DNA of 37,422 bases from a virus. Its lineage: Duplodnaviria > Caudoviricetes. Below are positions 2 to 26,900 of this stretch, one piece after another (the first letter of the stretch is position 1; every line of letters starts with the position of its first letter). The notes below the pieces were generated by a model. It saw only the letters and a program-made list of their open reading frames with translations, had not been told where the DNA came from and made no database searches. The stretch spans positions 1 through 37,422 of IMG/VR virus record IMGVR_UViG_3300033122_000112. The stretch is one strand, 5' to 3'. The translations under genes and the position numbers were made by a program.

Positions 2-319
2 GGTAAAACCTAATCCACCAGTAGTTTGTTCTGGGGAAACCCAGTCAATTCTACGTACCACCTGCACGGTATCTGAAGCCAGCACTCTTTTGAGAGATAC
101 CATGTCATCATAGGAACCAGAAAATTCAGAAAATGAATCCACTGCCTGTGGCGGTGAGTTTTCATTATCCCAACTTTGTGGTCTACCAATGAAAAGATAT
201 AACCTATCTCTTGTTGCACCCGCAACTGTATCACTTTCAGTTGCATTAGGACCTTCAAGTGCCTTTATGAACTTTTGTGCTGAAAAAATTCTAAATTGGT
301 CTGTTAATAGAGCTGCCAT
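2..319 (-). CDS. gp8: Baseplate wedge subunit gp8, 5' part only (runs off the window edge; not in the ORF track)
   Basis: Manual translation from ATG at 319 gives MAALLTDQFRIFSAQKFIKALEGP...RLYLFIGRPQSWDNENSPPQAVD...DMVSLKRV...VVRRIDW, with no stop to position 2. This is the typical T4-like gp8 N-terminus and sits in a baseplate context. Confidence 0.85.
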   Translation of the reverse strand, partial: MAALLTDQFRIFSAQKFIKALEGPNATESDTVAGATRDRLYLFIGRPQSWDNENSPPQAVDSFSEFSGSYDDMVSLKRVLASDTVQVVRRIDWVSPEQTTGGLGFT

Positions 320-346
320 TTTCTAGTGACTATTTGTCCTCCTGTT

Positions 347-353
347 TATTTAT
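347..353 (-). promoter_or_regulatory. T4-type late promoter (ATAAATA) upstream of gp8
   Basis: Minus strand reads GGCATAAATAAACAGGAGG in the short intergenic gap before the gp8 start; matches the gp55-type TATAAATA consensus. Confidence 0.65.
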
Positions 354-355
354 GC

Positions 356-3300
356 CTATTTCGATCGAACTATTGCAGAATATTCGATACTCTTAATTCT
401 ATAAGAGGCACCGCCATTTCCGTTGATGAGTTCTCCACCTAAAACTGCCTGAGCAGATGCACCAGATCCAGTTGTATCACTGGCATTATTAGTGAATGTG
501 ACTGTAGGATGTAAGGCATATGTTCCATCTACAGTTTGTGGAATACCATATCCACCATTATTGATAGTAATTGATGCAACTTGGTCTCCTTGAGGAGTCA
601 TAACCACAGTACCAGTTGCTTGTATATCACCTGTGTTCTCTATTGCTACAGTCGGAGCAGCAGTATAGTTAGTACCAGGATTAGTTATAACGAAATCAGT
701 AATAGTATTCTTTGATGAAAACTCATAAAGATAACCTGCAATACCAACATTTATATTATTAGTATTGAAAGGTATAACATCCTTGACTTGTAATACACCT
801 GTTGAAGGTATCCAAGAAACAACAGTTGCTTGTACACCAGACACAGAACCACTAACTATCTCATTAGTAGAGAAGTTCTGACCATTACCAGTTGTTTGAT
901 CTAATGTAATATTAATTAATGCAGTATGCTCAACACCTTCAGATAATCCACCTGCAGTAGTAATTGTTGCAAACTTAAATGGTATATCTCCATCTTTAAT
1001 ATTATCACCAACTTGGAATAAAGTTGTATTAGTACCACCCTGTGTTTCTTCAATACCATAAAGTGAATTGTAAATACCACCATCTAGTGATATTTGATTA
1101 GCAAATGTTGTATTAGCATTACTCAAATCTGGAATACCATCAGGTGCACCAGTTGGTATAATATCTTCAAAAGATCTATCTTGTAATACAGATAAAGGTT
1201 CAGTCAATAAATCTATGGTAGAACCTGCAGTTGTAAGAATTACATGTGGTAATACACCTGCAGCAGAACTATCTGCAACACCACCATCAAATTGTACGAT
1301 AGCATCCTCAGTTGCTGCTCTACCACCATCAATAAATGCTAACTCATCAACTTCAAATGTGACAAGTAGTTCTCTTGTATTTGGATCCCAATCATATACT
1401 TTAGCAACTTTATTATTTTGATTTTCAACTCTTCTAATAACTCTATCACCTACAGTAAATTTGTAAAGTGATACACCGTTAGAATCATTTTGACCAGGAT
1501 CTAATATAACTCTTTGATCATAATTAAAGTTTACACCACGAGTTAAACCAGTAAATTTACCTGCAGATTTAGAAGTATAACTTATTGTCTCTCTATTAAG
1601 AATAATAGATCCAGAACCAGGATATGCATCAGTAGAGTCAACATATATGTTTGCATCATTAGCAGTGACACTCTTGATTAATCCAGTCAAGTAAATTGCA
1701 GAAGAGTTAAACGCTTGTCTTGCTCTCGTCTTACGTTTTAATTGTACTAATTTTGTAAAGATAACATTAGGTACAGAAGTATATCCTACGCCTGGTTCAG
1801 TAACAGTTATACCTGTAATAGCACCTTGATCAATAGTTGCTACTGCTTTTGCACCGATACCTCCACCACCAGTGATAAGAATAAAAGGAGGTTCTTGATA
1901 AAATTCACCTTGATTTACAATATTGATATTTGTAACTTTTCCTAAGATGTCTATTTCAGCAGCACCTTGTGCACCCTGTCCACCACCACCTTCAAAGATA
2001 AGTGTTGGAGGAGTAGCATAATTTCTACCTGCGTTTAATAGTGATAAACCTGTCACTGTCTGCACTACAGGACTACCCAAAGCACCACTACCTTGACCAC
2101 CTAAAATTCTTGCTTGTGCAGGACCAAAGTAATTATCACCAAACTTAGTCATTCTAATATAATCAAGTTGTCCTGCATTAGTTGTACTTAAGACAACTTC
2201 TGCCTCAGCACCCTCTGGGAAATTAGTTGTTAAAGGAGGAACAGTATCACCTTCAAATAAAGGCACACCATAATATTTGGGACCTATAGCATAAGGATAT
2301 TTTGGAGCACCTGAAGCATCCTCAGTCATATAATATGCATAAGTTCCGTTTGGATATTCTGGTGTGGTAGAAAATCTACCATTATAATAGTCTAAAGTTC
2401 CTACAACGTCTAAGTATTTCCAATTACTTACAGTGCCACTTGTATGTGTAGGTGCAGTACCACCTGCACTTATTGATGCAGTTGCTTCATAGATATATCC
2501 TGCGTTTCTTACAGTGTCATACTGAACAAAACTCGCTGTACTTGACCATGCAGGTGATTCATCAAAAATATAATCATTTACAAGATCTCCTAATTGATAA
2601 CCTCTAGTGACTAATCTTAATCCTGCACCTGCAGTCACATAAGCAAAGAGATATAAAAGACCAGGTGAATCTACAGGAACTGTAAAACGCACTTCTCTTT
2701 GTGTGGTAGCAGTATTAAATAAACTTACATAAGTTTGATATGGTCTTTGTGAACCATCAATCCAATATTCTACTCCCTGTCCTGAAAAGAGATAATTTGT
2801 ATCACCAACTAAACCTGCATGCCAACCATCATCTGTTGGAGATATGAAGATATGATTAGATGGAGCATTAGATGAATCTAATTGATTAAAGATATATGTT
2901 TTTCCTCTGTCTAAAGTTAAGAATGTAGGAGATGCTCCATCAAATAAAAATTTATTATTTGACATTGTCACAGCATAAGTCACTGTACCAGATGTAGTGA
3001 CTACAGGTCTAGCACCTTGTAGTTCAGGAACTGTTCTCAGTCTATAACCTGATTTTTCTCTTGCAATAGTATTACCAATTTTTCCATAAGGTCCGTAAAT
3101 AGGATAACCATCAAATGACATACCTATGATTCTAGAATGTCCATTTGCATATCTTGAATAATCTAATGTTCCTGCTGCAGCAGTCCCAAAAAATCCTTCA
3201 ACATAATAGTTGTTCATATTTACTTCATCTTCTTCCTCAGCAGAGGTATCAAGAATCATATATCCTTCATCACCTGCATATCCAGACATATAACGATGAT

Positions 3301-4687
3301 TACCACAATAGTAATATATTTTTTGCGTTTCATCCGCATTCATTATGAATATTGGTTGTAATGAAGCTTCGTAATCTGCAGCATATGCACCAGAAGAACC
3401 TGTACTATTGTAATATAATGTTCCACCATTTAATGTGCCATCAGCAGTTGTAGAGAACCGCATAGGGTGTGGTGCATTACCTTGCTGATTAGAAGCGTCA
3501 GATTGATCCCATATAATTACATAATTCTTTTGTACTTTAATATTTTCTGGAGAGAAGTAATATACACCTGGTGTAAAAGCACCAAACTCATGTGCCTCTT
3601 CACCAAACTCAATATAAAAAATACCATTTGGGAATGTTATTGGTGCACCATTTATTTTAAATGAAAATCCATTAGATCCTAGACATAGATCATCTTGTGA
3701 GAAAGCATCTCCTGAAAGACTTCTTAGATATATTCTTACTACAACATTTTGACTGTCTTTTACTATTTTTGAAATTATACCTCTACCTGTCCCACCAACT
3801 TCATCAACTATTCTACCAACTTCTACTTGTCCTAATGTTTCATCTACATTAGTGACATTAAACATCACATTATCAAATTCTACCTTAACTTTCCATGTGA
3901 ATAATTCTTGATTACCCCATTCAAATACACCGTTGGCATCATCAAATTCATCTATAGTTTTACTTGTCTGATAATAATGTACATTATTATGAATTATAGT
4001 ATCATTTGCACTGGTATTTTTTACATAGTCATATTTGACTGTATCAATAGCAAAGTTTATAGGTGCTCCACCAACGTTATTACCCCATTCTGGTGTATGT
4101 AAAAGACCACCATTTGCTAATATACCGAGTGATTTATTTCTTTGAAACTCTCTAGTACCTGGATTAGGAACATCTTTACCACCTCTGTATATAAAGGTTT
4201 GATTGAATGTTCTATCTACAAGATCTCCTGAACCACCAGGTTGCCTTTCATTAGCATAAACCTGTGATGGTTTAGGATGATTATCTGATACAATAGTTAA
4301 TCTATCTGTTAACTTAGCTGGAGTTCCAGTAGTTCCAAATGTTGCAGTGGTAGCACTATTTGGATGAGATTGAAATATCCTTGTGAAATTAAAAGAATTT
4401 ACGACATTAGGAGTTTCCTGTTCAGGAATAATTTGTACTCTTAATGGATCATAACCTAAACCTCTATCAAGAACACGAACATGAATAATCTGTCCTGAGT
4501 CTTCATCTATTATTGGATATAATATTGCTTCTCGTGTTGGAGTTCCACAACCAGTCACAGTGAGTCGTGGTGGGTCTGCCTGTGTATATCCAGATCCACC
4601 ATTTACAACTCTTACCGCACGTACACCAAATACTTCGTCAAAAATAGGTTCAATGTCGGCACCAGTACCAGGAACGGTTCTTGCCAT
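356..4687 (-). CDS. 1443-aa probable virion/baseplate structural protein with a split YHYH-type domain, cupredoxin-like domains, a CBM5/12-like module and Gly-rich GxGY repeats
   Basis: YHYH-family motifs [19 protein letters not shown] and [22 protein letters not shown]; HPMRF...YYCGNHRYM; PAWSSTASF...NWKYL; repeats G.GY...P.V...GGGG.GA shared with gp7; located between the gp9-like gene and gp8. Confidence 0.75.
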
Positions 4688-4690
4688 TTA

Positions 4691-5946: not shown

Positions 5947-5953
5947 TATTTAT
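5947..5953 (-). promoter_or_regulatory. T4-type late promoter (ATAAATA) overlapping the gp7 stop codon
   Basis: Minus strand ACATAAATAAC; its TAA is the gp7 stop; about 27 nt upstream of the gp9-like ATG. Confidence 0.6.
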
Positions 5954-8900
5954 GTGATTATCTCAGGGTCTACTACTTCTTCACCATATTGACTTAAATC
6001 TGGTGCAGTCCAATCATCTGGAACTGAAGTTTCAACTGCGATGTCTGGATTTTGATATCCAGTACCTGTATTACTTAAGGTCACTCCACCAACACCAACC
6101 AGTGCTCTAATATTACCCTCAAAACCAGATATAGAGTCAACCCTTACAGTTGGTCTTGTAGTATATCCAGAACCACCACCAGTGACTTGTACCTGTTTAA
6201 TAAATCCAGTCGTTAGTGCTGCAGTTGCAACTGCGTCTTGACCAAATACAGATCCAAGATAATCAAATGTAATTAATGAGTTGGAAGATTCAATAACAGC
6301 AACTGTTCTATCTTCAGTCTCACCCTGTATTCTAATATCATCGCCTGGTTCTACAGGAGGTACAATCTCAGCAGCGTCTACGTCCGCTTCAGAACCAACG
6401 TATGAGAACGCAACGAATGTAGATCCTACACGAGGTATTTCTGAGAATATAATTCTAGAACCAACAATCTCAAAACCAATACCAGGTTCCTGTATAACAC
6501 CATTCAATGAACAAATAATATTGTTCTCTGGTCTAATTGATGATGACTGTACACCATCGGTCAATGTCAATGAGTAGAACACCTCATTACGTTTCAAGTT
6601 GAATGACTGACGCAATGAATCAAACTCAAATGATATATCATCTAACTGTCTAAGTTTACCAACATAGAATCCTGTAAATGATGCTCCTAACTCAGGTGCT
6701 TCAGTAAATTGAATCTGATTAGAGAACGCTGTGTATGCGTTTGTAGCACCTGGTGGTTGTAGAATACCATTGATGAATATTAGTAGATGTCCTGCAGGAT
6801 CTGGTAGATATGATATACCATTATTCTGAGATAAATCAAAGGTTGTTTGAACACCATCAAATCCTTTGAATGATCTCTTAACACGTGCTTTAAGATCACC
6901 CTTAGCAGAGATTGCTGCTTTATAGTTATCAATACTCTTGATAGCATCATTGACATCAAATGTTCCTGCAACATCACTTAGATATACTCTCTTCAAAGTA
7001 CCAACAGTTTTGACATCTTGAACAGTAGCAGAAGCAGAACCTGCAGTCACAACCTTAGTTGTAATATTTGCATAACCTTGTGGGAAACTTCCTACTCCAT
7101 AATCACCAACTTGATCACCATTTGTTAATGTTCCTTGGAACTCTTGTGCGTAGATAAAGTTATTTGCAATATCTACACCAGTGATTATTGCATAAGTATT
7201 CAAATCTTGAGTACCATTAGCAATCTTATAAAGTCTATTACCAACTTGGAATGTAGCAAGACTGGATATGATACTAATACCAAATCTTACATTTCCAGTA
7301 GATGCAATCTTAGCACCAACTTTAAGTTCTAATCCATCATACTTAATAACATCAAGGAATTGTCTAGATGCCTCAGGATAAACAACAGAGTTAGTTTCAA
7401 ATGTTCCATTTAAGGTTGCAGTATCAACAGTCAATGTACCACCAGTATTATCTGTGACAGCAGCTTCGTTCTTTAAGAAAGCTCCTGCAGGTTGTGCAGT
7501 ATTTCCAGATGTATAACCTTTGAATGGAATGTTATCTACAAAATTACCTTGTAAGTCAATAATATGAAGACGACTCTCGATTGCACTTATTTGAGCAGTT
7601 GTAGAGTTATTTGCACCAACAACATTATCAGTGATTGCCCAAGGACCTGCAGTCACCTTAACATCAAGATACTTATAGTTTGCATCTTCAAAGAATCCGT
7701 AAACAACACCATTGATAGAAGCATTACCTTGTTTCTGTACAGTCTCGTTCATAGTATAAGGACCATCTGTTATATCACCATCAATTCTAAATCTTTGATA
7801 TACCTGAACAACTTTACCTGAGTTTTCTGCGATAGATTCAAGTTCACCATATACATTACTTGATAAACCGTACATGTAGTCGGCATTGTTTAATCCACCA
7901 CCAAGAGCAACTGGTAGAGATCTTGTTCCATATAGTTTAGTAGGAACAGAAATACCATTCTGAGATGTAATTTGTGTATAGTAGGTTCCTGTCTTAATTT
8001 GATTTCTAATAATATCAATGTTAGATCTTATAATTCTACTCATTGATTTTGTATTATAATTTGCAGCTTCAGATGAATCATAGAACTTATAGAATCCTGC
8101 ATTAGGTGAAGGTTCTGTAAGTGTATTATCAAGTGCTGCTTGCATGTATGTTTGAAGTGTGTTCAAGGCATATTGTTTAATGTTGTATTCATTATCTGAG
8201 AAGAATACTGTACCATCTCCAGACTGATAAGGATCAAGTGCACTCTTAGTAAGTTTAACACCCCATACGTAAATACCATCTGTACCATTACCTGCATAGT
8301 TTTGAGAACCAGATGCATTATTGATAATGATCTTATTCTGTAATGTTGCGAAACCAAAGGAGAATGTAGTTGTAATAAATGCTCTATACCAACCATTACC
8401 TAGAGGAACTACTCCTGCAGAATCATTACTCATACCACCCTGAGGTGTGAACACAGAACCAATAGTTCCTGTGGTTAAGTTAAGATCAAAGAAGATTCTT
8501 TGTACAGCAGAGGTTCCTTCATCAAGTGACATTTGGAAACGAACTGATGTATATCCACCTGCCTTGATAAATGCTGAGAATGTAAATGTCTGATTTGCAT
8601 CTGCAGAAATTGAACCAGTGTCAAATGACTCGTTAGTAGTGTCAAATTTAACTACACCAGAGTCGAAGGTTTCAAAAGCAGTCAGACTGAAATCTCTGTT
8701 AAGTGTATGAAGTGCAAGATTAGTGCTTGGTACAATTTTCTCAGAAGTAATTGTAAGATCGGGAGCAGCAATTGAGTTATTTGTAATGGTTGCTTCAGTT
8801 GCAGTCCAATCACTTGCTATTGCCTCTGGATTACTGAATAAGTTTGCACCTGCAATCTGACCAGTAATATTAGATGTTAATGTTCTAGCATGTGCAATAG

Positions 8901-11900
8901 TTTGTACATTTGTTGGTTTGTTATACCAGTCATAACCTGCAGCAACTGTATTGACTACACCTACTGCCTTGGATGTTCTACCAACAATAGTATTACCATT
9001 TGCCCATTGTGTTCCTACAAATGGAGCAACAACTAAGTATGTTGTATCTTCATTCCATTCTAATACTTTTGCATAAGCACCATTACTTGAATGTATTACT
9101 TCACCAACTGTATAATTTCCAATATTACTTGTTAATGTGATTTCGTATGCAGTTGTCTTATCTGTAAGATCAGTTGCAACAATATCATGCACCATATCAT
9201 CAGTGATATTTGTAAGGAATTGATCGTATATCCACTGACCAGTACCAAATTGTGAGTTGACCTGATTAGTAATTTCTTCCTTATAATAGTTGTAGTTGTA
9301 AAGAACATGTTTAGCAGCACTTCTACCTGCAAGTTTAGCAGGTGATAAGAAGTTAACTGCAATTTTAATTAACTCTCTAAATCTAGTAATTACATTAGAA
9401 ATGGTAGTTGGTGATTCAGAATCTCTAATTGCAGTTTCATCAGTCTTTGTCGCAGCATATCCAGTTGGTAAAGTAAATCCACTATTGAAATCTTGAAGTA
9501 TATTATTAAGTGCATGCTCACCAATAACTCCAACTTGTTCTATAGCAAATATAAACGCAAGTAATTCATCTTCTATAGTTTGAATTTGTAAACTAGCATT
9601 GAGATATGTCTCCATAGCAGTTATTGTGCTACTTTGACCACCAGTTTGTAAGTCAGATATCATAGCAAGTAAGATATCTTTTAAATTATTTTGAACTACT
9701 ATTTCTGTTCTTCCAGTACCAGGATAACTAAACGCAGTATAAGATACACCATTGAGAGTGTAGTTAAATTCTGATGATGTTAAACCAGTTGCTTCTTCTA
9801 CAATATATTGTCTATTAAAGTATAATCTATCTCCACCGATATCAAAATCATTATCGGTAGGTGCAATCATGTCATTGATCGTCGTGATAAGAGCGTCAAC
9901 CTCAGTCTTAACAGCATCAAAGTAAGTAGAAACGTTATTGCCAGTAATATCCCAGTCACCTGTAATAATATCATTTGTGTTGTCATAAGTTAAATCTCCT
10001 GTAATTGCTTCTTTAATGTAAACTGCAAGACGATCATGAGCATATATTGACTGAACAACTTGTAAACGAACTCGTCTTATCTCATTATTATTTCCGAGAT
10101 AGAAGTTTGCTGTCTCTACAATTTTTGCATTACCACCATCTTCAAGATCATCAGCAATCGCTTGAACAATAGTTGTTAGATCAGTCTTCTTCTGTAATGT
10201 TCCTGCATCAGATAAACCATTATTATTTCCTGGTAAATCTAGTACTAGATCAGGATAACGTTGTAGCATATCATAAGTTGCCTTATCAACGATAACACTA
10301 GCATTTTGTCGAATTAGATATGCAGCATCTCTATATCTGTATTGTCCATCAATATCAATTTGATTTGTGTATATAATGTCAGAAGTTCCATCGTGATATG
10401 ATACTGGGAATGGTACTTCTTTAAATCCATTTACTCTACCACCAATAAATTCAGCAGCAGGTGATACAGAGGTCACTGTAGCAAGATGATCTGTAGGAGA
10501 TGCTAGTATAGCATTGTTTAATGTATCAGTTAATATTGTGACTAAGTTATTTTGAGTAGTGATAACATCAGAACAATCTGATAATGAATAGAATACCTTA
10601 GTGACAGCATTTGTTGCAGATGCAGTCCATGTATGTGTGTATTGATCATCTGCCTTAGATGCACCAACATTTATTGTAAATGTATTTGCATCATGTGCTG
10701 TTAGTGGTAGAACTTGTGCAGATGCAGGGTCAGTGGATCTTGGATATGTGTGAGTTGTAGCATTACCATCTTTAGTACATGTAAATGTTAGAGAGTTATC
10801 TGAAATAATTACAGAATCACCTGCAACATCAATTCCATTGGTTGTAGCAGAAACAAATGTATGTGTATAATTACCACCTGTAGATACACCATTAGAAAGT
10901 CCAGATGCAAACTTATGTGTATAATTACCGCCAGTTTGAACAAGTGCTCTTTGAACTCCATTACTTGATGCAGATACAAATGTATGTGAGTAATTACCAC
11001 CTGTTGTAATTGCGTCAGTAGTAGCAGAAACAAATATATGATTAGATGTATTTGTAGAAGGTGTGCTTGCTAAAGTCTGAACAGTAATTGTGTCATCAGT
11101 GACATCAGTGATTGTGACTGCAGTGTTATAGTTAGGATCAGTAGTTCTAGGATATGAATGGTCTGTAGCATAATCGTCTTGAGCACATCTGAATGTTATT
11201 GAGTTTGTTGCTATCTTAACTGCAGTTCCTCTTCTTAAATTATGACGACCTATTGTAAGTGTCATAAATCCAGTTGTAGGATTATAATCAGCATGTGTAG
11301 GTGTGAACTTTCTTAATGGAGATTTACCAACGTTGATACTTAGTTTGTTATAATCAACATTGAATACTTCCATCCACTTACCACTGATAGGATCAGTAGC
11401 ACGAGGATATGCTTTATTAGAACTATTACCATCCATTGAGCAACTAAATGTCACTGCACCATCTGCCAATTTGATTCTTTCGTACTCTTTAATTTGATGT
11501 CCATGCTGTACAGCATTAGTTGATGCAGATACAAATGTATGAGCAGATAGATCTGATATTGGAGTTCCGTCTCCATTTACATTGACTGTAATTGTAGTTG
11601 CAGTTTCATCAGTGACTGTTAGATCATAATTATACGCATAGTCATTACTGCTTGCTCTTGGATATGTCTTCTGAGCAGTATTGCCATCTAATGTGCATGT
11701 AAACGTAATTGAGTTAGGTTGAATTCTGACTGTATCACCAATTTTTAAAGTATGTGATCCAATAGTCAATACCATATCACCTGTAGTAGGATTGTATGTA
11801 GCGTTAGTTGGAGTAAAGTTGGTGGTTGCAAATGTCAATTCCATGACACCAGTTGTTGCATCATAAGTTGCACCATTAGGTGTGTACTGATGACTTACAA

Positions 11901-14900
11901 CTCCAGATAATGTATGAGTAGTTGTGTTGGAAGGTGTATATCCATTAAGAACATTTATAGTGACAGAATTACTTGTAACAGCATCAATAGGGATTGCCTC
12001 AGCGACTGCAGGATCACCTTCTATAATTCCACCCTTAGTAGCAGATACAAATGTGTGAGTTGTTGTATTTGTAGAAGGAATCTTATCAAGTACTTGAACT
12101 GTAAATGTGGTTGTAGTTGGAATAGTTTCTACAAACAACCATCTATTACTTGCATAATCTGTAGATCTTGGATATGGATGATTAGTTGCGTTATTATCTT
12201 CATTACATGTAAATGTGAGAGATAGATCTTGGAACATAATTGGAGTTCCTACTCTAAATCCATGAGCAGCAGCAGTTGTGACTGTCATTATGCCAGTTAC
12301 AGGATTATAAGATGTACCAGTTGTAGCAGTATGTCTATCTTGTTCAGATCTAGGATATAAATGTTCTGTAGCATTACTATCTTGTGTACATGTAAAGACT
12401 AGAGAATTAGGTGCTAACTTAATAGTTGAGTTTGCTTTACTTACACCACCAGATGTTGCACTTACAAATGTATGAGCAGTGACGTTAGTAGAAGGAATAT
12501 TATCTAAAACCTGTACATCAAATGTGTTTGTTGTGACATTGAAAATAGGAATCCACTTATTACTTACAGCATCAGTAGATCTTGGATAGTCATGGTTTGT
12601 AGCATTGTTATCTTGTGCACAAGTAAATCTCAATGAGTTATCTGCAATCTTAACTTTCTCACCATTAGAGAAGTTATGACCTGCAATAGTCAATGTCATG
12701 ATACCTGTTGAAGGCACATAGACTGCATTTGTGACTGTATGGGTTGTTGGAGCAGGAAGACTATGGTTTCCAATAGTTAACACAAGTGCACCTGTGGTAG
12801 CATTATATGATCCTTGTCCAGTAGGTATGTAAGCAACTGTTGGTGATTTACCAATATTAACTGTAATTGTATTATCTCTCTTAATAATGCTGTGCTCAAG
12901 AGCAGATACAAATGTATGAACATATTGATCGGCAACAGCACCAATACCTACATTAACTTTGACTGTATCGTCTGTCTTTTCTTCAATTCTTAACCATCTC
13001 TGTGCAGCAGGATCAGTTGCTCTAGGATAAGAATGAGTTGTTTTATTACCATCTTTAGTACATGCAAATGTTAGAGAATTTAATTCAATTCTAATTTCAT
13101 TATCAGTTGTTAATCCATGACTAGGAATGGTAATAACCATATCACCTGTTTGTGCATTGTAGCTTGCATTAGTTGCAGTTAGAGGTGTACCATTAGTCCA
13201 GATTGGGAGTGATGTATTATAACCAGGATCATCAGTTCTTGGATATGAGTGTATAGTTTTGAAGTTATCTTGTGAACACTTGAATGATACCGCATCTTTA
13301 GAAAGTCTGAGTGTTTCTCCAGAACGAACCATAGAGTTAGGTAGTGCATACTGGAATGTATGAGTTGTAGTATTACTTGAAGTACCTACGTTAACATCAA
13401 ATGTATTTGTGGTGACATTGCTTATTGCTAACCACTTATTGTAATAAGGATCAGTAAGTCTAGGATATGGATGATCTGTAGCATTACTATCTTGTGCACA
13501 TGTAAAGACTAATGAATATACATCAAACATTACTCTATCACCGACATAGAATCCGTGATTAGCGATAGTAATTGTCATTACACCTGTTGATGGATTATAA
13601 GCAGCTCCCTCAGGTGTATATTTCCAAGCAGTTCTTAGATCATTATCACCAATGTCCATAGTCATGAATCCAGTCTGACCATTATAAGTGGCATCAAGAA
13701 CTGTGTAATTTACAGTTGGTGATTTACCTACATTAATACTAAAGTTATTAGCATCAATTCTGGTGACTTCCATCCAACCTTGTCCAGCTGGATCATCAGG
13801 ACGAGGATAAGATTGTGATACTGTATTACCATCTGATGTACATGTCATGGTAATAGAGTTTGGTTTCAACTTAATTCTATCACCAGTCTGAAGATTATGA
13901 CCATTAGATGTGATTCCTAAAACACCAGTGGTAGCAGTATATGTGGCATTACTTGCAGTTATTTCACGAGGTGAAAGTAATCCATGACTGTTGCTAGTAA
14001 GAACCATAGCACCAGTAGCAGGATTATATGTTGCACCTGTAGGAGTAAAGTTTACAGCAGATGGATAATCAGAATCTTTTAGAGTTCCATCATATACCTG
14101 TGTGAATGAATGACTTGTATCTTGAATATCCCAAGGAACATTATTAATAACAAATTTAGATATTTTCTCTACAATTTCAGTTGCATATACTTCTTGTGGA
14201 ACATCACCCTCAATAGTTCCTGTTGCTATTGATATTGGATTTGTTGTTCTATTAATGTATGATGCAGATGTAATCCAGATATGACTATTACTACCATTAC
14301 GAAGGTCGTCTACTAATGCTTGTATGAGAACTTCAAGTCTTGCTAATTGAGCACTATCTCCACCTTTAACAGTATGTGCAGGGAATACCTGCTTCATGAT
14401 ATATAGTGCTTCTGCTTTTATAAGTTCTTTATTTGTTAAAATATGATCAGCAGCATTTAAGTATCTGTGTGTTCTACCAACAAATCCAGCTGGTGCACCA
14501 GTTGTACGAGATGTTGCTAGTATAGAATCATTATTAAATTCGTCTCCGATAGCAGGACTAACAAAACCAGACCAATCTTCTGTATATGTTTGACCATTAG
14601 ACCCATCAAAGTGAACTAATAATTTAGTATTTGTATCACCCTGATGTATTCCAGTTTGAGAAGTAAATGCTGAACTATAACGATTACTATTAGATACCCT
14701 TAATTCATCAATATATCCTGTAAATCCATTAGCACCATTATAATCCATACCAACTCTAATTGGTTTAGTAGCAAAATTACTACTATCAGTTCCAGTTCCT
14801 ACCTCAACACCATTCAACCAAATCTTAGTGGTTGAACCAGATCTAACAATAGCAACATGATACCATGTAGCATTATTAAGAGTAGTAGCACCAGATGTGA

Positions 14901-17900
14901 CAAGATCTGATCCATTTACATTATAACGAATCTGAGCTGCTTGTAGATATACTCTAACAGCAACTTCAGTTGCGTTTTCTCTTTGATCTAATAAAGTTGC
15001 AGTTCCAGATATTGCTGCAGAGTCAGGATTGACCCAGAACTCTAAAGTAAATGCACCAGTCCCCCAAGCAAATTCACTAGAAGCAGCGATATTTACATAA
15101 TCTCCTGTGCCATCTAATAATAGTGATGATCCACCAAACTTAAATGATCCAGTAGATATTTGTGCATTACCTGCAAATGTAATAGCATGTATATCTTGAC
15201 CATTATACTGACATCTACCAATCTTACCAAGATAAACTGTTTTTCTTGCTTGACTGTATCCAACAACTTCTGCTTTAGTTCCTTCACCTTCTGCTAGAGA
15301 ACCAATTCTAATAGTTTGACCCGCTACAAAGAATCCAGTTCCTTTTTGATTTGTAAATGTCAACTTACGTATCTTAGCATCTTCTGCAGAATCAAAATCT
15401 CCATTGGAATTACCATATTCTATCTTGTAATTTCTAATATCTTCACCCTCTGCTAAAGCACCACTAGCATTATCATAGGTAATTACATAGTTGTTAATTT
15501 GTTCAGTAGCAGGGAAGTTTTCATTAAATGGAGTATTGTTATCTGTAAAGTCAACAATATTAACTGAAGAATTAGCAATATTATCAAGAACAACGTTTGG
15601 ATATGTCTGTGATGTAATTCTGTTGAATAGTAAACCGAAGAATGATGATCCTGGTGATATATTAACCTGACCAATAAACTCATTAGTTGTAGGATCTTGG
15701 TATACACTTGAGGCAGTGACCTGTGCTACAACACCTGACTGTGCAGCAATAATATAGTCATTAAGTTGAATGTCAAATAAACCTGGTGTAGATTGATATG
15801 TACCTGCAGTCTTACTTAAAGTTAATTGATCTGTGACTAATATATCAGTACCGTAAACAGGAACATCTTCTTGATGTGAAACTGCAGTAGTACCATTCTG
15901 TGCTCTGGTCACAGTAAGAGTTGTAGACTCACTACCTTGTGTGATAGCAGACACTAATACAATTTCAGATCCAAATTGATAGTTTTTACCTGCTGTAAAT
16001 GTTCCAGCTGGGACTGCAGCATCAGCAGCAGTATTATCAGTTCTATATGCTACTACTTCTATAGAAGTTGTAGATAAACCAACAGTATAACGAAGTTGAG
16101 CAAGAGGTATTTCCTGACCTGTCTGTAAGTTAACTTGTTCAACTTTTGCAGTATCACCATCAAAGTTAGTGACTTGCTCACCAAATATGAATAATCCACC
16201 ACTAGCAACACCACCAGTTACAGTATAAGTTGTACCAGAGAACGCTGCTCCACCAGATAAAGTAGCAGTTATAATTTCATTTGTTTGGAAATTACCTAAA
16301 GTAACTGTTCCTGATATTGTAGTACCAACAACTTGTGTGATTGTTAACTGAGCACCAGATGTTGCACCTGTAAATACTGTACCTGCAGTCACATCTGCAG
16401 CAGCAGGGAAGTTTCCAGTAGTGACATTATTGATGTTTATATCAGCAGTTCTTGTAGAAATATTAGCAGAGAATCCAGTAGCACTAACTGTACATAATTC
16501 ACCACCGCCACCTGCAGTAGGTAAAATAAATGTTCCTTGAGTTATAAAACCAGTGATAGTATTACCAGTGACTTTTGTTACTGTTAAGCGAGCATTGGAT
16601 GAAGTACCTACGACAGTATTACCAACATTAGGGAAAATACCACTGATATTAGTAAATGTAAGATCAACCGTTTGTATAAGATTAATAGTGACGTTTACAT
16701 ATTTGACACTAGCAGGAGGTTGTGGTGGTTCAACGAATACTATTGAGTCCTGTTGAATTGAGAATGCAGTACCAGGTGTTTGTACAACACCGTTAAGTAC
16801 GATCATTAACTGGTTTGCGTTAGCAACAATATTAGTTTGATTAACTTGTAGTGGGAATGAAGTTCTTTCACCATCAAACAGAGATGATATATCATCAATT
16901 CTTTGTACAACAGATGTTAGAATATTCTCAGAAGAAGTTAATCGTTTCTGTCTGAATAATACCTCAGTATTATTGAATGCAGTATAAACAGGTTCTACAA
17001 GAGCAAAGTTTTGTATATTAGGAACTATCGCTTCTTGTGCTAATTCAACAGATTTAGTTAAAGAGAAGAATGTTTCTTTGTTAGGAATAAATCCATACTC
17101 ATTTAAGTTAAGTTCACCAAATACTTTGAATGATGCAGGGTGAACGTTCTTAATAAGAATCTCTTTCCATTCACTGATAGAAGTAGAAGATTTAACAGCA
17201 TAAGAGAAATCCTGATAATAGTAAGAGTCTTGAATCTTCTGAATAATCTCAGATGGTTTACCAACGTCATCAATAAACTGACCAGTAGTTCTAGTGATAG
17301 AACCAATTTCAAGAACACCACGAGCAATTTTAAGATCAGTAATAATACCAGAAGATTTAGATATAACACCAGTGATTCTTTGATTCTCTGCAAAGTCTCC
17401 AGTGTAGTCAACAATCTTAAGAATTCTAGGTCCTACCTGCCAACCAGAGTTTGTAGATACAAATCCTTGGGCAGTTGCAGTAGCAAGAGAATCACCTTGA
17501 TATACAAGTTCTCCTTCTAAGAAAGTAGAGGTAATAACATTTGCTTCAGCAGAACCACCGAATGATTCAGTCAATACTTGCTGACGACCTGTACCTGCGT
17601 TAGAGAATGATAAAGCATCACCAAGTTCAGCGTTAGCAGCAGTAATAGCAAGTTTTAATTGATCATCTTCTAGTGAGTTTGCAGTACCAGATATCGCATA
17701 GTAAGTTGTGCTTCCATTTAATCTACCAACAGCACCTGCAGATAGAGGGAAGTCAGCACCATCACCAGTATCAACAACATTTAATGTGACTGCAGCACCA
17801 TTTGCAATACCGTGTGGGAAAGCAAACTGTAGTAATCCTAAGTCAAGGTTTATAACATAGTTAAATGAAGATCTTAATGAAACTGTAGGAGTTGATGAAT

Positions 17901-20900
17901 ATCCTGCACCAGGATCTTTAACAATAATAACATCTAGTCTACCATTCTTAATTGTTGCTTCAGCAACAGCACCAGAACCTCCACCACCAGTGACTATAAC
18001 AGCAGGTGCTTGTGAATATCCAGTACCTGGATCTGTAATGGTAATACTATCAAGTATACTTGTAGAAGTAAGCTGTGCGTTTATTGGGAATGATATTTCA
18101 GGGCGTAGTGTGTAGTCATGTGGATAATCATAACCAAAATTATTGTTCTTAAGTTTCTTAATCTTACCAACATTTGCACCCTTAGTAAATACAGATGCTC
18201 CTGTACCTGCTGATGGTATAACAACCACTAACTCAGCACCAGATCCAGTCAATCCAGTTCCAAGTATGCCAGGTATAGCGTTAATATCAATCGATGCAGT
18301 AGTATAATTTTTACCTGGTGATGTGACAACTACATTATTGATTTGACCAGGAATTGTTGATCCTTCTGCATCAGTTCCATCTGCAACAGTGATAGAAACA
18401 AATCCACCTTCACCATCACCAGTAATAGGAACGCCATTATAAGTTCCAACTGCATATTCAGTACCTGGTGCATTGATCTGCACTCTTTCAATTTGTCTAC
18501 TTGATGTAATACCGCTAACAATAGGCAACTTAGTATAGAAACCACCTGGATTGACAATACGAATATCACCAATAGAACCAACTGCCTTAGTAGAACTTGT
18601 TGTGTAAGATGCTTGAGATATAGTTGCAGCAGCTTCTGGTTCATTAGCGAGTGGAAACTTAAGTATATCAGCACCTTTAGTAATGGTAGCACCTGCAACA
18701 GAACTTATCTCAAATGTTCCGTCATATGGAGAATTTACAACATCAAGATAACTACCAGGTACCACTGGGCTATCATCACCAGTTCTTGATGGATCAAAGT
18801 AATATGATATATTTGTTACTATATTTCTATCAACTTTAAGCTTTACTGTAGGTGTTGGTTGTCCACCACCAGTGACACCAGGTGTACCAACTCTTTCTAT
18901 AGAGTTGAATGAATATTCTAGTTTGTATAGATTATCTTTTGCAAATGATAAGTTTCCACCTGCCATAGATGAATGACTAAGATCAAACAAATACTGATGA
19001 CCATAGTACATCTTTAATGTTGGTGATTTAACAAAAATACTTACATCAGATGCATTTGTAGCAGGAGCAGTGAGAGCTGCTTGATCTAGTTTGTATGTAA
19101 ATTCTAAAGGACTAACAACTCTTTCTACAGCAAATGCACCATCATACTCATCATATGAGGTAGCCCCTATAGTTTGTGTTGGGTTTCCATCAACATAAAC
19201 CATATCACCCTTATTTAAGTAATGGCTTGTATTTGTAATTACATAAACCTCATCACTATTTGCTACAGCAGTTGCTTGAAGAATCTTAGTTAGATTAGCA
19301 ACTAGGGTAATCTTAAGAACACCTGTTAATCCACTAATTGTTGCTTGAGAGTAATCGCTATTCCATGTAATTGCACCAGATCCTATAGTGACTACAGATC
19401 CAACAATATATGCAGATGATCCAGAAACTTGATCTATTCTTACAGAGTAGTCAGCATCAGCATATGGTTTAAATGTTGCGAATGAATCTAGATTACCTGT
19501 GCAAGAGTTAATAGTAAACTTGGCATCACCATTACCACCACTAACTACTACTTCGTCTCCAACTTTATATCCAGATCCTGCAGCTCCACCCGAATCTATA
19601 GAAATAGATTGTATAACACCACCAGATGCAGTGTAGTCAACTAACAATCCAGATGCTTCGCCATTGGTTGTAGTTGTTGCAACACTATCACCAGTATTAG
19701 GATAACCTGTACCTGCTGCTGTTAAAGCAATAGTTGCAGGTATATCTGCTATTGTACCATCTAAATCAAAACCATCTAGGTTGATAATAAATGTACCAGG
19801 TGTTTGATTATTGATTTCTGCAAACGTGTAATTTGATATTTCATTGATATCATTAGGTATTGCACCAGTAATACCATAATTACTTTGCTCATTAAACTGT
19901 TCTGTAGATAATTGACCAGTGTTTAGATCATTACTCCATGCATTATTATTAACTGCTAAGTATACAATGTTATTTGCATCATCTTTTCTAATAATATATC
20001 CACTATTAACAAATTGACCAGAATCATTTTTTAGAACTAACTTAGAACCAACAGAGAAGTTAAATGCCTGATTGATAGTCAATGCTTGAACATTATCAAT
20101 CTTAATTGTAGGTGTAACTTTAAAGTAGTATCTGTCCTTAACAACTGCAGTCACTTTTAATTTTTGTGAACCTGGTGAAGGAACAGTAGCAGTTCTAGAA
20201 CTCCAAATATCTTGAACATGAGATAATGTCTCAGTGTCCTCAGTCATAGTTGTAGTACTGTCATCAAAGTCTAATGACTGATAACCTGCCTCTCCAAGAG
20301 CATAACCATTTACATTGATAGTAAGAGGTGAACCAATAACAGGAGTCACAGCAGTTCTTGTGAAAGTTATACCAGTATTAGCTTTCTTACCTTGGTTCCC
20401 TAATCTTGTTGCATCAGCATTCTTATCACTCTTAAGACCAAATCCTGCATATTCAATGTAATCATAACGACTCATATGATCTGCAAACCATGCATCATCA
20501 ACCCAATTAAATGTAAGACCATATGCACCTGCAGTAGGTAATGCAAGGATATCACTAGGAACTGTTGGTGTGATTGCTCTATTTCTTAAGCGTAAGTGAT
20601 CTATATGATATTGACCTTGTTCGTTAGATCTAAACTGACCTAGTGTACCATTTGCACCAGGTATATTACCAAAGTATAAATCTTTAGCACCTAATGAAGT
20701 TCCTGATATAGTACCAGTAAGAACCTCAATTCCGTTTACGTATGCCTTAAATGTATCACCACTCTTAGTGACTGCAATTGCTTGCCATGTATTATCAGCA
20801 TATAAGTTTGTTTGTGATGATGTTAAAGAACTACCTGCAGAGTTAATACTTGTAGTACTATTAGTAATAGTCAGAGTCAAAGGACCACTCGGACCTGCAG

Positions 20901-23900
20901 AACTCTGATCATAATATAAATGTAGTCCACCAGTAGATACTGTGGCATCACCTATAGCAAAAAGTGTTTCTTTAGGTTGGGAAAATACATTACTGTTTGT
21001 GGCATCCTTGAATATAAAGAATTCTAGAGTCCAATCACCTGCAAGTTTCTGTCCTAAATCTGTACCTGCAAATTTTATGTTAGTATTAGTCCAAACACTT
21101 GGTGCTGCAGTTGTGGCACCTAATATCTTACCCCATCCACCAGAGGTATCATAACTAAATGAATCACTTGTGCTTGTGAGAGCAGCAGTATAATGTGTTG
21201 TGGTATCTGTAAGAGCACTAGATGTAAATGGTATTACAAACTCATTTCTATTCCAATATGTTTGACCAAATGTATGAACATCACCAGATGTATCAACATC
21301 CAATCCATGAATTTGTAGACCCTCTATATTATCGGCAGTAAATTCTGTAGTTGTATGATTTTTAATTGTACCATTATATCCGATCTTTAATACATCAACA
21401 GTCTTATATTCATTAGTATTATTATCTCTAGTATATGCAATATTAAGATCACCAAATAAATCAATAGCAGACTTACCACATGATGTGACATCTCTACCAG
21501 GTGTTAGATAACGATAGTTCCATATTAGTGCTCCTGTACTATCAATCTTACCAACCCAAATACTATCTCTATCTGTATCATTTGCTTTTTGTCTACATGT
21601 AGCGTTAATATAGATTTCATTAAACTCATCTATAGCAATGCTAGTGTCTATCATAGAATGTAGAGAATTAGCATAAGTATTGATCCAGTCAACAGTAATA
21701 GCATTGACTCCAATCTGACACTTACCAACAGCAACATCAACATCTAAAGCATTAACTGTAGATGCAGTCTCCATACAGAAGTAAACATCCTGTCCACCTG
21801 TTGCTGAGTTGTAATTACAAATAATATCAGTAATTCTTTCAGATTTATTTGCAGAAGCAAATTTTCTCTTAATGGCAAAATTACCCGATGTATCAATAGA
21901 TGCTATGAATGCATCATCAGGGTTTGCAGAGTTTGTATTTGTGTATCCACCGATTATATAACGAGTATCACTATACTTCTTAATTATTGTGATATGATCA
22001 GCACGAGTACCACCAGATATACCTGCATATGCTTTTTGGAAAGCAAGTGTTGCACTTAGACCGTTTGCTGCCTGTGTATACTTACAAAGTATAACGTCAG
22101 GATTATATGCATTAAGAATACTACTATTTGGTTTATTAATACCTACAACCCAAACATCATTACCATCAACATATAATGAATTAAATTCTGCGTAATTTAA
22201 CCCACTACCGAGTTCAAGAGTTTTAGACCATTCTTTAACACCAGTTGCTGATAATTTTGAGACGAATGCGACAACGTTGCCACTTGCATCTTTTGTTTTA
22301 CCACAGATGAATACTTCTTTGTTATCATTGACGAAAGTATCATTGACTTTGACATAATTGTTATTATTAATGAATGATAGATAATAATCTGCTTTTTTAA
22401 AGATCTGTGGATGTGAAAGTATAACTCTTGGGTTAGATGTATACCCAGAACCAGAGTTAATAATATTAACAGTATCAATAGAACCTACACTTGTCACAAT
22501 TGCCTCTAGTTCACCATCTTGACCGCTAGTGCTATCAATAATAATTGTAGGAGGAATATCAGTATTATATCCAGAACCAGTCTGTGTAATTTGTATTTCT
22601 TCTATACCTTTATATTGACGAACAGTAAACTGTTTGTTTGTATTGTCCATCACAGGTGTATAGTCAACGAATATACTATCACCTGCAACTAGATTATGAG
22701 GACTAGAAGTTGTTAGAACACCAAAGTTATTACCACTTATACTCTCAAAAGTATATGCTGAGACTGTTTCTCCTTTAATACGAGAAACACGTGCAGATGC
22801 ACCATCACCACCAGTTCCTGTATTATCAAAGACTAATCTATCATTTACCTGATATGATTGACCTGAGTTTTCAATAGTAAATCCAGTGACGTTAGCATCT
22901 TCAAATTTATTAGTTGTTTCTACTTCAATATCAACTTTCGAGTCAAATCTAACTTTAGGGAAGTAATCAAAGAGTTGTAGAGGTGATTCTTCAAATAATT
23001 GACCTAGATTAACTTCTGCTGATTCTTCAGCATCTATCTGTCCATCTCTATTAGTATCTTCTGGATCAAAGAGTAATATTGCACCATCTTCAGTTGTTAG
23101 AGCATTTGTAGAAGCATTAGGTGCTCTTTCAACATCAATATCAACATTCTCATATGGATCACGATATCTTACAACACCAGTTGGAATATTTTGCTGCACT
23201 GCACTTGTGCTTAAGTTCCATGTATCAACAACAGAGTTAAAACTAGGACCTAAGACATAAGGGAATTCTGGATTACCTGCCTCTGTAGCATCTATAGTGA
23301 CAAAGTAGCAGTATCTACCTGTAGGGTAGTCAGGTGTCTTACAAAATCTACCATTGTACTGATCTAGATCACCAAGGTTGAAAACATACTCATAATCTTC
23401 AACAAAATTACCTGCTGCCTCAACAGATAGTAGAGGACCTGCAGTTCTTACAGGAGATGGATTATTTGAAGTTTGTACAAGAGCAGGTTTAACTCTATAT
23501 GAAGTTCTTAATCTTGTAATTTCAGATGACTGGTCGGTAGGATCAGTATATCCATAAGGACCGTAAATTGGGTTTCCGTCAAATGCCCAACCAATGATAG
23601 GAGAGTGTTGTAGTTGTGTTTCTTGTTCAGTAATAGTTCCTACAACTGCCTCTTGTAAGTTATCACCTAGAATGAAACGTAGTTTTTGTGGATTTGATAG
23701 GTGAGCATATTCTCCACCATACTGATTATTATATCCTTCAAATACTCCACCTTTAGCAGCGTCTAATACAGATGTTGCTTGTAAGTTATATGTCCACTTG
23801 AATACTGAAGGTGTAAAGACTGCATCCTGACCAACAGATGTCATATTAATAAGAGTAGTTCCTTGAACGTATCCAATACCACGGTTAATAATGGTGATAC

Positions 23901-26900
23901 TTGTCACTCTTCCTGCATTTTCACCATCAGTGTCTATGGTAGCACGAGCAACAGCACCAAATCCAACACCCTGAATACTAACTTCAGGTGCTGTAGTATA
24001 TCCTGAACCTGCAGAGATGATAGCAATAGAAATGATTCTACCATTTTGTACAATCGGCTGTGCCACTGCTCCTGAACCAGAAGATAGACTTACAGTAGGA
24101 GCACTGGTATAAGAACTACCACCATTGGTAATATTAACAGTATTAATAGGACCTCTAACACTGGCGGTGCCCGCAGCACCCGTTCCGCCTCCACCAACAA
24201 TAGTAATTGAAGGTTGAGAAGTATAACCTGTACCACCAGAGTTAATCAAAATACGGCTTACAGCACCTTTAGTAATAATAGCGGTCGCTGCTGCTCCTGA
24301 ACCGCCTCCACCAACGATTGATACTAGAGGAGAAGATGTATAACCAGAACCACCTGCTGTGACTGTAATCTCAGAGATAGAACCATTAACTACAACATTA
24401 GCAGTAGCACCTGTACCTCCACCACCAGAAATAGTGATAACAGGAGGAGATGCAGCATCATAACCTTGTCCCGCATTAGTAATAGCAATATTAGTGATTG
24501 CACCGAAAGTTTTACTTTGTGTTGACTTATATGACCATACAGAAACACCATTTACCCATGTACCAATAGGACCTGAAGAAATTTCAGACTTAGTTGATAT
24601 TGTAGTAGGGAGTGTAGGGAATCTGTTTAATTTACGTTGGTTGCCAGGTAAAAGAGCAGAACCAGGAAAAGGACCTATAGAATAGTTTGGTATACCAGTT
24701 GATGCAACGTAAGTATAGTTGTCATTGAAAAAAGAGTTCTGTATATTAGTAGTGTAAGGTCCGATTGCATTTAGAATCGTAGTAGTATCAGACTTACCTT
24801 TGTTCAAGTCAACTGATACTAGAATATTACCTTGTGGTACGATTGCTGCAGGTTGTGGTAGTGCATACTGGAATACTGTCTCACTATCTCTTGATGTGAC
24901 AGTAAATGTACCATTATAGATGATTGGGTTTGCACCATAAACTGTGACCTGATCACCAACCAACAAACCGTGATTATTAGAACATGTGACTGTTGCGGAT
25001 TGATTATTTACACCACCAAATGTGATACCACTAACAGTAATCAGTTTCTTGACGTTATATAACCAAGTTGTAAGTAAAGGAGATGTTCCAGTACCACCTA
25101 ACTTAGAAACTGTTAGTTTATCACCTTGTAAGTAGTAAGAACCTGTATCAGTTAATGTTGTTTGTTGTGCATCAACAATACCAACAACATTCATCACAAC
25201 TTCTTGTGGTGTATCCTTATTAATTTTTACTTGGAAGTTTGATGAGACTTCAGTAGCAGAATCCCAGTCCTCTACAACTCCGTTAACAGAACGAGTACAC
25301 TCAATAAACTGGTTAAGTGATTTTTCCTTATATTGTACTAATTCTGCACCAGAACCTGTGCCAATTACAAACTCTCCGTTTCTTTCTGGCCATCCAATGG
25401 TAGAGTCAACTGTAATGATTGAATCTGTTTGACTTAATGGTTCAGCAAGTTTTGTCTTATAAGGTACGGTAAACGTTCCTGTAATAGTTTCTTCAGATAG
25501 AACAAGTTCAAATATCTCTACTGTAGATGTTTTAATTGAAATGTAGTTTTCAACAAGTGCAGATGCTCCTTTTACATTAGGATCTGCAATATCTGCATCT
25601 TGTTGTAGAAGACCATCTTGAATGTCTGTAGCAAGTCCAGAAACCTTAGTTGCTCTTAAAATAGTATCAATAGACCATGTTGCTGCAGATGGTTTGATAA
25701 TCTGGTCTTTTGGATATGATATACTTACCGTTTCACCATATAATAACTTGAATAGATACGCAATACTGAATGATGTACCTTTTGCGGAGTAGAAATCCTT
25801 AATAGTTTTGATTGCTGTACGAACATCAATCTTCTTATAGTCTAGTTCTGGTACATCAGGTAAGAACTGCTGTGTATACTTGTCTAGTAAACGTTTTACA
25901 AATAAAGCATCAAGACATTTTACCTCAGTATCAACAGTGGCAGATGCAGCAGTAGTATCATTAGAAAATACTGCATTACCATCTTCCGTGTATTCTACGA
26001 TACCAGATGCAGCACGTGCACATCCTGTAAACTGTGCTTTATTATATCCTTTACCTGATTGATTAACCTTAAACCCTGTGACCTCATTTAAACCTATTTC
26101 CGCAGATGCTTCAGCACTTGTAGGTGCTTGAATTACAACAGAAGGAGGATTTGCAGCAGAATATCCACTACCAAACGCACTTACGTTAATATCTGTAATC
26201 GCACCGTTGAATATTGCAGCAGTTGCGGTAGCACCTGTACCACCTGCGTATGCTCCTGTACCATCTACTCTATTATCAACGATATAAACGGAAGGAACTT
26301 CATCATATCCGCTTCCTCCGTCAAGTATATCAATACGGATAACTCTTCCGTCTCCATCAACTACAGTTTGTAATACTTGTGCACCAACAGGATCTACTAT
26401 TGCTACTCTTGGAACGGATGTATAACCTTGCCCTGCGTTAATTGTAGTAATAGATGCAATAGTTCCGTCAGATGCTAGGACTGTTTGAAAAGATGCTCTG
26501 ATTGGATTATTACCAGTTGGTTCATCAACATACACTACAGGAGGGGTTGTATATCCAAATCCTGCATTTGTTATTGTTAAACCACCACTAATAGATCCAT
26601 TAGATATCGTAGGAGTGGCGACTGTAGCACCACCAGGCTGTCGGAAAGTGATTCTAGGTGTAAATGTATATCCAGAACCTGATCCCTGTAATTCTACAGC
26701 AGTGACAGAACCATTTTCAACTGTTGCTTTTAATGTTGCTTGTATAGAACCTGTTTTTGTAGGAGATTCAATTTGAACAACAGGAGGGTTTGTATCGCTA
26801 TATCCTTTACCACCATTAAGTAGAGTCACGGTCTTAATACCGTTTACTAATGCTTGTGCAGCACCACCTGATCCTACAGTTGTACTAATAGAAACTTTTG

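Follow-up and report, generated by a model that had tools for sequence, protein, structure and literature searches.

A self-nested barrel tree in gp7

The subject of this analysis is a tree of nested domains in gp7, a giant baseplate protein of a marine cyanophage, encoded on a 37,422-nucleotide stretch of DNA from a virus of the Caudoviricetes (IMG/VR record IMGVR_UViG_3300033122_000112; the whole stretch is referred to below as the window). In this protein, 11 copies of one domain of about 104 amino acids (aa), predicted to be a small beta-barrel, lie inside one another's loops, and we regard it as very nearly certain that the architecture is self-nested in this way. The overall reading, to which we assign a probability of about 0.75, is that of a nested barrel tree which was likely built and trimmed by recombination and which likely provides a weak multivalent grip on the host. 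The open reading frame (ORF) that contains the tree comprises 7,312 aa on the minus strand (5950-27888). Judged by its position and its baseplate-wedge homology, it is the T4-like gp7 baseplate wedge initiator, with a Pfam Baseplate_wedge match of 35.1 bits (cut-off 27), the gene order gp25-gp6-gp7-gp9 around it and a length equal to that of gp7 of Prochlorococcus phage P-SSM4.

A first-pass annotation, made from the sequence alone, had divided the domain into four ordered parts, A to D, and had read the parts as balanced brackets in the order 1[2[3[4,5,6[7,8,9[10,11]]]]], with copies 1, 2, 3, 6 and 9 split and the others forming contiguous leaves. A hidden Markov model (HMM) was trained on contiguous copies only, starting with the six leaves of the window, then 161-165 and finally 422 distinct contiguous copies, and was used in a jump-Viterbi parse that permits free jumps between model positions and has no built-in knowledge of nesting. 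This parse recovered the annotated fragments in the same order, the exception being the 5-residue tail of copy 6, which went undetected and was assigned manually. With it in place, aa 4614-5762 (1,149 residues, window 14049-10603) are covered by the 11 copies without gap or overlap, and each fragment resumes near the point where the innermost open copy had stopped, namely at HMM positions 24 after 29, 69 after 67, 25 after 24, 57 after 57, 20 after 20, 90 after 86, 88 after 81 (twice) and 26 after 30.

With their inserts removed, the split copies align end to end with the contiguous ones, as had been proposed: copies 1, 2, 3 and 9 cover HMM positions 1-100 and copy 6 covers positions 6-94. The five rejoined copies score 75-117 bits and the six leaves 122-152 bits, compared with at most 14 bits, on a related glocal score, for the parts of gp7 outside the domain. 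A single HMM fits every copy, the identity among the 11 being 30-60%, and the motif YPR occurs 11 times in the whole of gp7, always within aa 4694-5715. The long separation claimed for the two parts of copy 1 also holds, as it breaks off at aa 4642 and resumes at aa 5688. The three GGNY segments, which begin at 11001, 10932 and 10878, close copies 9, 3 and 2 as annotated, according to the tiling, to contiguity in orthologues and, for copy 2, to fold matches. Part D of copy 3 is degenerate and that of copy 6 is itself split. Two greedy procedures were set aside and lend no support here. In a greedy stack parser, 339 of 536 resumes fitted the topmost stack entry (298 of the 467 that were informative, with 177 expected), a low rate that arises because missed short pieces cascade, and its figure of 0 in 20,000 shuffles was left unused because the real order failed the same strict criterion; greedy peeling stripped the region as far as the flanks but fused pieces of copies 1-3 into chimeras.

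Orthologous inserts at the same site

To compare the nesting among gp7 orthologues, inserts were anchored on both flanks of the helical host domain, which gave 91 distinct inserts with 1-25 copies at this site. Insert length follows 105.4n + 15, where n is the number of copies (r = 0.999); the parser undercounts eight 4-copy rows as 3. A single contiguous copy is present in 14 of the 91 inserts, and the nesting depth in relatives reaches 9 by the automatic parse. The same loops were found in empty and in filled states. In loci L015 and L017 the insert reads 1[2[3[5]]], with A3 contiguous with B3 and C3 with D3; A3 is also contiguous with B3 in L020, and in L056 copy 9 is present without copy 11. 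Conversely, leaf 4 of the window is a split host in L056 and L107, as is leaf 11 in L107. Small trees lack whole subtrees, and in an unguided MAFFT alignment the gaps fall on copy 4 and on the larger part of the copy-6 subtree.

The region is repetitive and greedy parsers erred on it, as would be expected if nesting were only mimicked by an assembly artefact or by a linear tandem array that has degenerated. This explanation is refuted by the exact tiling, by the orthologue series and by two cultured phages: the tree region is 99.7% identical across all 1,155 aa to gp7 of P-SSM4 and of cyanophage P-RSM3, which excludes an assembly artefact. Some match to the region occurs in 365 phage records. 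In addition, the DNA repeats within it are short, with identities of mostly 66-90%, and we consider the probability of a tandem array or artefact to be negligible.

A search with the barrel profile retrieved 707 of 1.84 billion representatives at E <= 0.001. Among the loci examined, 304 ORFs carry the barrel, of which 221 are gp7-like with four main host sites and the rest are other long proteins. The four sites in gp7 orthologues lie at aa ~4250, 4450, 4600 and 5950, one of them within the LamG region, and the window occupies only the 4600 site. Nested trees of the same barrel, with 8 to ~25 copies, were also observed in long proteins that are not gp7-like (L129, L118, L090, L087, L086 and L101). 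A barrel loop at aa 3778-3846 of the L020 main ORF holds a glycine-rich, non-barrel module of a kind that is frequent in the N-terminal half of gp7, so barrel loops accept foreign domains too.

Predicted structure and fold of the barrel

An AlphaFold2 model of 1,166 aa, computed from an alignment of 37 rows, reached a predicted local distance difference test score (pLDDT) of 84.4 and a predicted template modelling score (pTM) of 0.70, and the split pieces appear in it as strands. In a wide VIA search, single-barrel PDB domains align to model positions 36-38..1086-1088 in 7 of 50 rows, which corresponds to copy 2 with the third GGNY segment as its closing part, and in 1 of 50 rows to positions 6..1165, which corresponds to copy 1. 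The model thus predicts that copies 1 and 2 each form a single barrel from pieces separated by about 1,000 residues. In a model truncated at aa 5019, copies 1, 2 and 3 lose their first strands while leaves 4 and 5 keep theirs, and all 50 fold matches centred on copies 4 and 5.

The best fold matches of the predicted model are the barrel of the phi92 endosialidase (PDB 4hiz; Z 8.1-8.2, root mean square deviation (rmsd) 1.9-2.5, 77-84 aligned residues, 19-21% identity) and the E1 FCCH domain (PDB 4p22 and 2v31; Z 7.9-8.2), together spanning Z 7.9-8.2, rmsd 1.9-2.6 and 75-84 aligned residues. They are followed by phage neck and tail barrels and by reductase-type barrels, and among the named clusters of the ESM Atlas a phage E1_FCCH cluster comes nearest (0.92). 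In the truncated model, pLDDT stayed at 86.9 and was not lowered by the loss of partners, which counts against the nested reading. A Z of about 8 is near the level where a shared fold says little, and End_beta_barrel (PF12195) matches copy 4, one of six leaves, at only 14.2 bits (E 0.042) against a cut-off of 35. PF16190 (E1_FCCH) matches none of the six leaves in Pfam. The domain therefore appears, on the predicted model, to share its barrel fold with the endosialidase and E1 FCCH barrels, and by Pfam score it is not a member of either family. Sequence searches did not name it either, with no Pfam family found on the region and whole-protein families only in PHROGs; a PDB sequence match (best E 0.001) was judged to be chance, and Foldseek against the PDB with a 415-aa model gave nothing useful. 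HABAS entries were absent from the fold matches listed, by which an unlisted family is not excluded.

Across the 422 contiguous copies, Cys41 (100%), His90 (99%) and His22 (96%) are near-invariant, and the conserved model positions are 22, 41, 44, 52-54, 57 and 90. The near-invariant Cys, YPR and His define a barrel family of its own, and the conserved Cys and His may possibly form a metal site. A plain barrel was observed elsewhere in gp7 (window 24810-25062, minus strand, aa ~943-1026), with a weak End_beta_barrel match (E 0.005). A profile comparison of the nested barrel with this plain barrel (aa 945-1028) covered 19 columns at 57% probability, using a shallow template.

The annotation had further proposed that the N- and C-termini of the domain are adjacent, so that it can be grafted into several of its own loops and give a branched tree, which the parse, the orthologues and the model all support. 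The first and last strands of the barrel are predicted to pair, so that a whole barrel could replace a loop via linkers of a few residues. The chain would enter one barrel, build all barrels nested in it and then complete the open barrels in reverse order, and the tree would fold as a fairly rigid branched array of small beta-barrels. Circularly permuted barrels (D-A-B-C), which fit adjacent termini, were found in the L020 main ORF (aa 3466-3570), in L035 (aa 3422-3525) and in ORF101 of phage S-TIM4 (L300; aa 4079-4182).

Pairing of the fragments and nesting depth

Among the pairings that are complete in sequence, only one is non-crossing, and it is picked out by three lines of evidence, namely the orthologues, the parse statistics and the structure prediction. 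For the parse statistics, 72 architectures (75,714 aa), which are related and not independent, were compared: closing the copies last-in-first-out gave a parse cost of 2,906, compared with 9,063 when they were closed first-in-first-out and 14,565 when the order was shuffled, and the last-in-first-out order won over first-in-first-out in 52 architectures, tied in 16 and lost in 4. Fragment covariation, a weak test, also places the nested pairing best for A-B. The nested pairing is nevertheless not unique, and some results speak against it. By sequence completeness there are 36 possible pairings, because A1, A3 and A6 share a break-off point near position 24 and D2, D3 and D9 a restart near 88; in the same weak covariation test the nested D pairing comes second (0.36 versus 0.37 for a 2/9 swap); and the partners of copies 3, 6 and 9 rest on orthologues, only those of copies 1 and 2 being read from the model.

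These results bear on the question of whether a protein with a nested history may fold partly domain-swapped, with exchange among A1/A3/A6 or D2/D3/D9. The fragments are homologous and interchangeable in principle, the D2/D9 covariation is ambiguous, and swapping of some domains is described for Si3 of cyanobacterial RNA polymerase (PMC11515920). However, copies 1 and 2 pair in the model as the nested parse predicts, A3-B3, C3-D3 and C9-D9 are contiguous in orthologues, and the linkers are short, which makes such a swapped fold improbable.

As to the depth of six levels given in the annotation, five are firm and the sixth hangs on one short strand of copy 6. Depth six needs copy 9 to lie inside the D hairpin of copy 6 and to be closed in by the last strand of copy 6, whereas the automatic parser, for which copy 6 ends at model position 91, arrives at five. 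One extra strand is predicted at aa 5650-5652 in the AlphaFold model. Furthermore, the RAV-type linker is absent from all seven small architectures, none of which has a copy opened in the D hairpin, and present in all ten larger ones, nine of which show such a copy by the filter used. The depth of this tree is thus likely six, with five as a floor.

Growth and loss of branches

A survey of 17 representative architectures with 213 domains, 141 of them split, revealed that insertions cluster at about five loops and the D hairpin. The annotation had suggested growth by repeated self-insertion, which in the strict sense of a copy duplicating into itself was not borne out, as an insert resembles its host no more than it resembles other copies. 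Each insert could in principle stem from local duplication of its own host by template switching: one parent-child pair in L056 shares distinctive motifs, and old events may have lost their signal. Yet parent-child identity is 39% versus 40% for other pairs within a protein, the nearest neighbour in the protein is the parent or child in 10 of 193 domains when 22 are expected, none of the 17 pairs at least 62% identical is parent and child, and the L243 family suggests that recent inserts match a distant copy better than their host. Local duplication is accordingly an unlikely source, and the donors were likely other copies.

Recombination among copies, which we favour with somewhat better than even confidence as the process of growth and pruning, would account for several further observations. 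At the VGKSP site, 47 of 61 junctions close with a GG-type linker, and the pattern GG.Y.H occurs in none of the 422 contiguous copies; the same few linkers at many nodes suggest that a handful of original insertions were copied between barrels. One tree holds five scattered copies that are 63-72% identical. Identity along gp7 is also patchy, L151, L225 and L226 matching the window at 100% in copy 6, 87% in copy 1 and 81% in the C-side host flank, which points to recombination between close relatives, and in laboratory evolution of S-TIM4 the repeats of a different structural gene were seen to undergo intragenic conversion (PMC6224464 supplement 1). On the other side, hosts that are opened at the same site show no greater similarity outside it (39.7% versus 39.5%), and the model rests mainly on the linkers, which could be convergent. 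The excess identity around junctions is only +0.10, just upstream of the VGKSP site. According to the recombination model, a few original insertions with stereotyped linkers would have arisen first and then spread between barrels, the donors being copies other than the host copy and about six barrel loops serving as graft sites; the same process would also remove branches cleanly.

In a quick, midpoint-rooted tree of the host flanks (48 rows, with recombination possible), the 11-copy clade lies among 15-, 17- and 25-copy forms with 99% support, and 21-copy forms are next. Since its sister lineages carry 15-25 copies, the 11-copy tree of the window has probably lost branches. The description of a tree grown by insertion thus covers only part of the history, the lineage of the window having probably been pruned.

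Comparison with known systems

The closest parallel is Si3 of cyanobacterial RNA polymerase (RpoC2, beta'), in which, according to two reports, HABAS domains are inserted in HABAS domains over six levels with branching and partial swapping (PMC13114784, PMC11515920). In both cases, one family is inserted in its own members at branching nodes and closed in reverse order. In gp7, the discontinuous hosts are complete when rejoined, the inserts are homologous to their hosts and branching runs over several levels; that separated pieces form one domain is seen in the predicted model for copies 1 and 2 only. The gp7 tree differs from Si3 in that it belongs to a virion protein and not to the beta' subunit, has another best fold match, counts 11 domains in the window and 1-25 at one site among relatives compared with the 8-10 given for Si3, and shows gain and loss of subtrees between related phages.

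With the endosialidase barrel (PF12195, 4hiz), the best or second fold match, the gp7 domain has in common a small barrel within a phage tail protein, but that match covers one enzyme stretch of ~85 residues, as opposed to 11 nested barrels, and is below the Pfam cut-off. The E1 FCCH domain (PF16190; 4p22, 2v31) and the reductase, riboflavin-synthase and elongation-factor barrels are alike at Z 6-8, without a Pfam match and without the Cys, YPR and His signature of the gp7 barrel. The likeness to T4 gp7 consists in the gene position between gp6 and gp9, the Baseplate_wedge match and the P-SSM4 annotation. T4 gp7 has roughly 1,000 aa; the giant gp7 is about seven times longer and adds YHYH, LamG, helical repeats and the barrel tree.

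In the open-access phage literature, no description of a self-nested architecture was found for gp7 or any virion protein, and the available passages of the P-SSM4 genome paper do not mention one (PMC1079782). The annotation, which knew of no description for this protein, is thus borne out for gp7 within this literature. The type as such has been described: recursive nesting of one domain is already known from Si3, from which the gp7 case differs in fold, protein and range of copy number.

Possible function of the tree

The tree may give the phage a weak, multivalent hold on the surface of its host, a tentative function to which we give slightly less than even odds. For the endosialidase barrel, binding of polysialic acid and an influence on host discrimination are reported (PMC12632334), and glycan binding by analogy is a lead only. 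The S-TIM4 orthologue, ORF101, is listed as a virion protein by mass spectrometry (PMC6224464 Supplementary Table 3), and the same report gives 12 mutations at 11 sites of ORF101 in laboratory evolution. Several results weigh against a role in host attachment. None of these 11 sites lies in the barrels (about 1 expected), the ratio of non-synonymous to synonymous substitution rates (dN/dS) is 0.07-0.45 per copy, similar to the 0.15-0.24 of the rest of gp7, from 11 relatives that are not independent, and the fold similarity is modest, with the Pfam match below the cut-off. The mutation sites and dN/dS together suggest that the tree is kept folded, with no sign of an arms race. One of the S-TIM4 changes, G969D, falls in a motif matching the plain barrel of gp7 (aa ~943-1026).

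The same tree could equally serve as a brace or spacer of the baseplate or be a largely neutral elaboration, in which barrels would come and go by recombination under selection for folding alone, binding being done elsewhere by LamG domains or fibres, and we hold this for about as plausible as the grip. Consistent with it are purifying selection at the gp7 average, the sufficiency of one copy in 14 of 91 inserts, the stability of copy number within clades, the position of the laboratory-evolved mutations outside the barrels and the occurrence of such barrels in phage tail and neck structures (9jlf, 9lc0, 9n71, 8iyk). It is harder to reconcile with up to 2.7 thousand aa of well-conserved sequence kept at one site, with the presence of trees elsewhere in gp7 and in further virion proteins, and with a top fold match that includes a glycan-binding barrel.

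Features of the window

The positions of the tree, its fragments and its host gene are listed in Table 1. Outside gp7, the gene at 30516-31070 (minus strand) is denV (endonuclease V) in the P-SSM4 annotation, while Pfam identifies it above the cut-off as a 2OG-Fe(II) oxygenase, so that the denV label is likely a misannotation.

Table 1. Barrel tree, host gene and flanks in the window.
Feature	Position	Strand	gp7 residues	Basis
gp7 ORF, baseplate wedge initiator, host of the tree	5950..27888	-		ORF, Pfam, gene order, P-SSM4 length
N-side flank of helical host domain receiving the tree	14050..14460	-		anchors orthologous inserts
Copy 1 part A, tree root	13963..14049	-	4614-4642	HMM parse; one barrel alignment spans model 6..1165
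Copy 2 parts A-C to VGKSP loop	13708..13962	-	4643-4727	HMM parse; 7/50 fold matches
Copy 3 part A	13621..13707	-	4728-4756	joined to B3 in L015, L017, L020
Copy 4, contiguous leaf; split host in L056 and L107	13330..13620	-		HMM tiling, orthologues
Copy 3 part B and first part of C	13183..13329	-	4854-4902	HMM parse
Copy 5, contiguous leaf	12886..13182	-		HMM tiling
Copy 3 end of C and VGKSP loop	12832..12885	-	5002-5019	HMM parse
Copy 6 part A	12742..12831	-	5020-5049	HMM parse
Copy 7, contiguous leaf	12442..12741	-		HMM tiling
Copy 6 part B through YPR	12334..12441	-	5150-5185	HMM parse
Copy 8, contiguous leaf	12025..12333	-		HMM tiling
Copy 6 part C and first half of D	11887..12024	-	5289-5334	HMM parse
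Copy 9 first part of A	11818..11886	-	5335-5357	HMM parse
Copy 10, contiguous leaf	11509..11817	-		HMM tiling
Copy 9 rest of A, B, C to VGKSP	11308..11508	-	5461-5527	joined to its D in L056
Copy 11, contiguous leaf; split host in L107	11008..11307	-		HMM tiling, orthologues
Copy 9 closing part D, first GGNY segment	10954..11007	-		HMM parse, orthologues
Copy 6 likely last strand, sets depth six	10939..10953	-		predicted strand aa 5650-5652; linker co-occurrence
Copy 3 closing part D, second GGNY segment	10885..10938	-		joined to C3 in L015, L017
Copy 2 closing part D, third GGNY segment	10828..10884	-		HMM tiling; fold matches
Copy 1 parts B-D	10603..10827	-	5688-5762	HMM parse; fold match
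C-side flank of helical host domain	10279..10602	-		anchors orthologous inserts

Significance

In a 2026 survey covering 2.7 million classified domains, six-level nesting in cyanobacterial RNA polymerase serves as the complex case (PMC13114784). The gp7 barrel family likely equals this depth here and exceeds it in relatives, with a different fold and in a virion protein. The natural series of 1-25 copies at one site makes domain insertion and loss traceable step by step. It also makes testable how deeply discontinuous domains fold, the two halves of copy 1 being separated by 1,045 residues, and what role the giant gp7 proteins play in abundant marine phages. The barrel and its linkers are moreover a ready scaffold for the design of branched single-chain proteins. 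A bolder proposal, which we regard as rather doubtful, is that the baseplates of marine cyanomyoviruses bear single-chain protein dendrimers, in which recombination via a few inherited linkers copies, grafts and prunes a six-loop barrel to form a tunable, multivalent arbor of 1 to ~30 glycan-binding barrels. If true, such an arbor would be a new viral way to vary the attachment surface and a natural kit for branched proteins.

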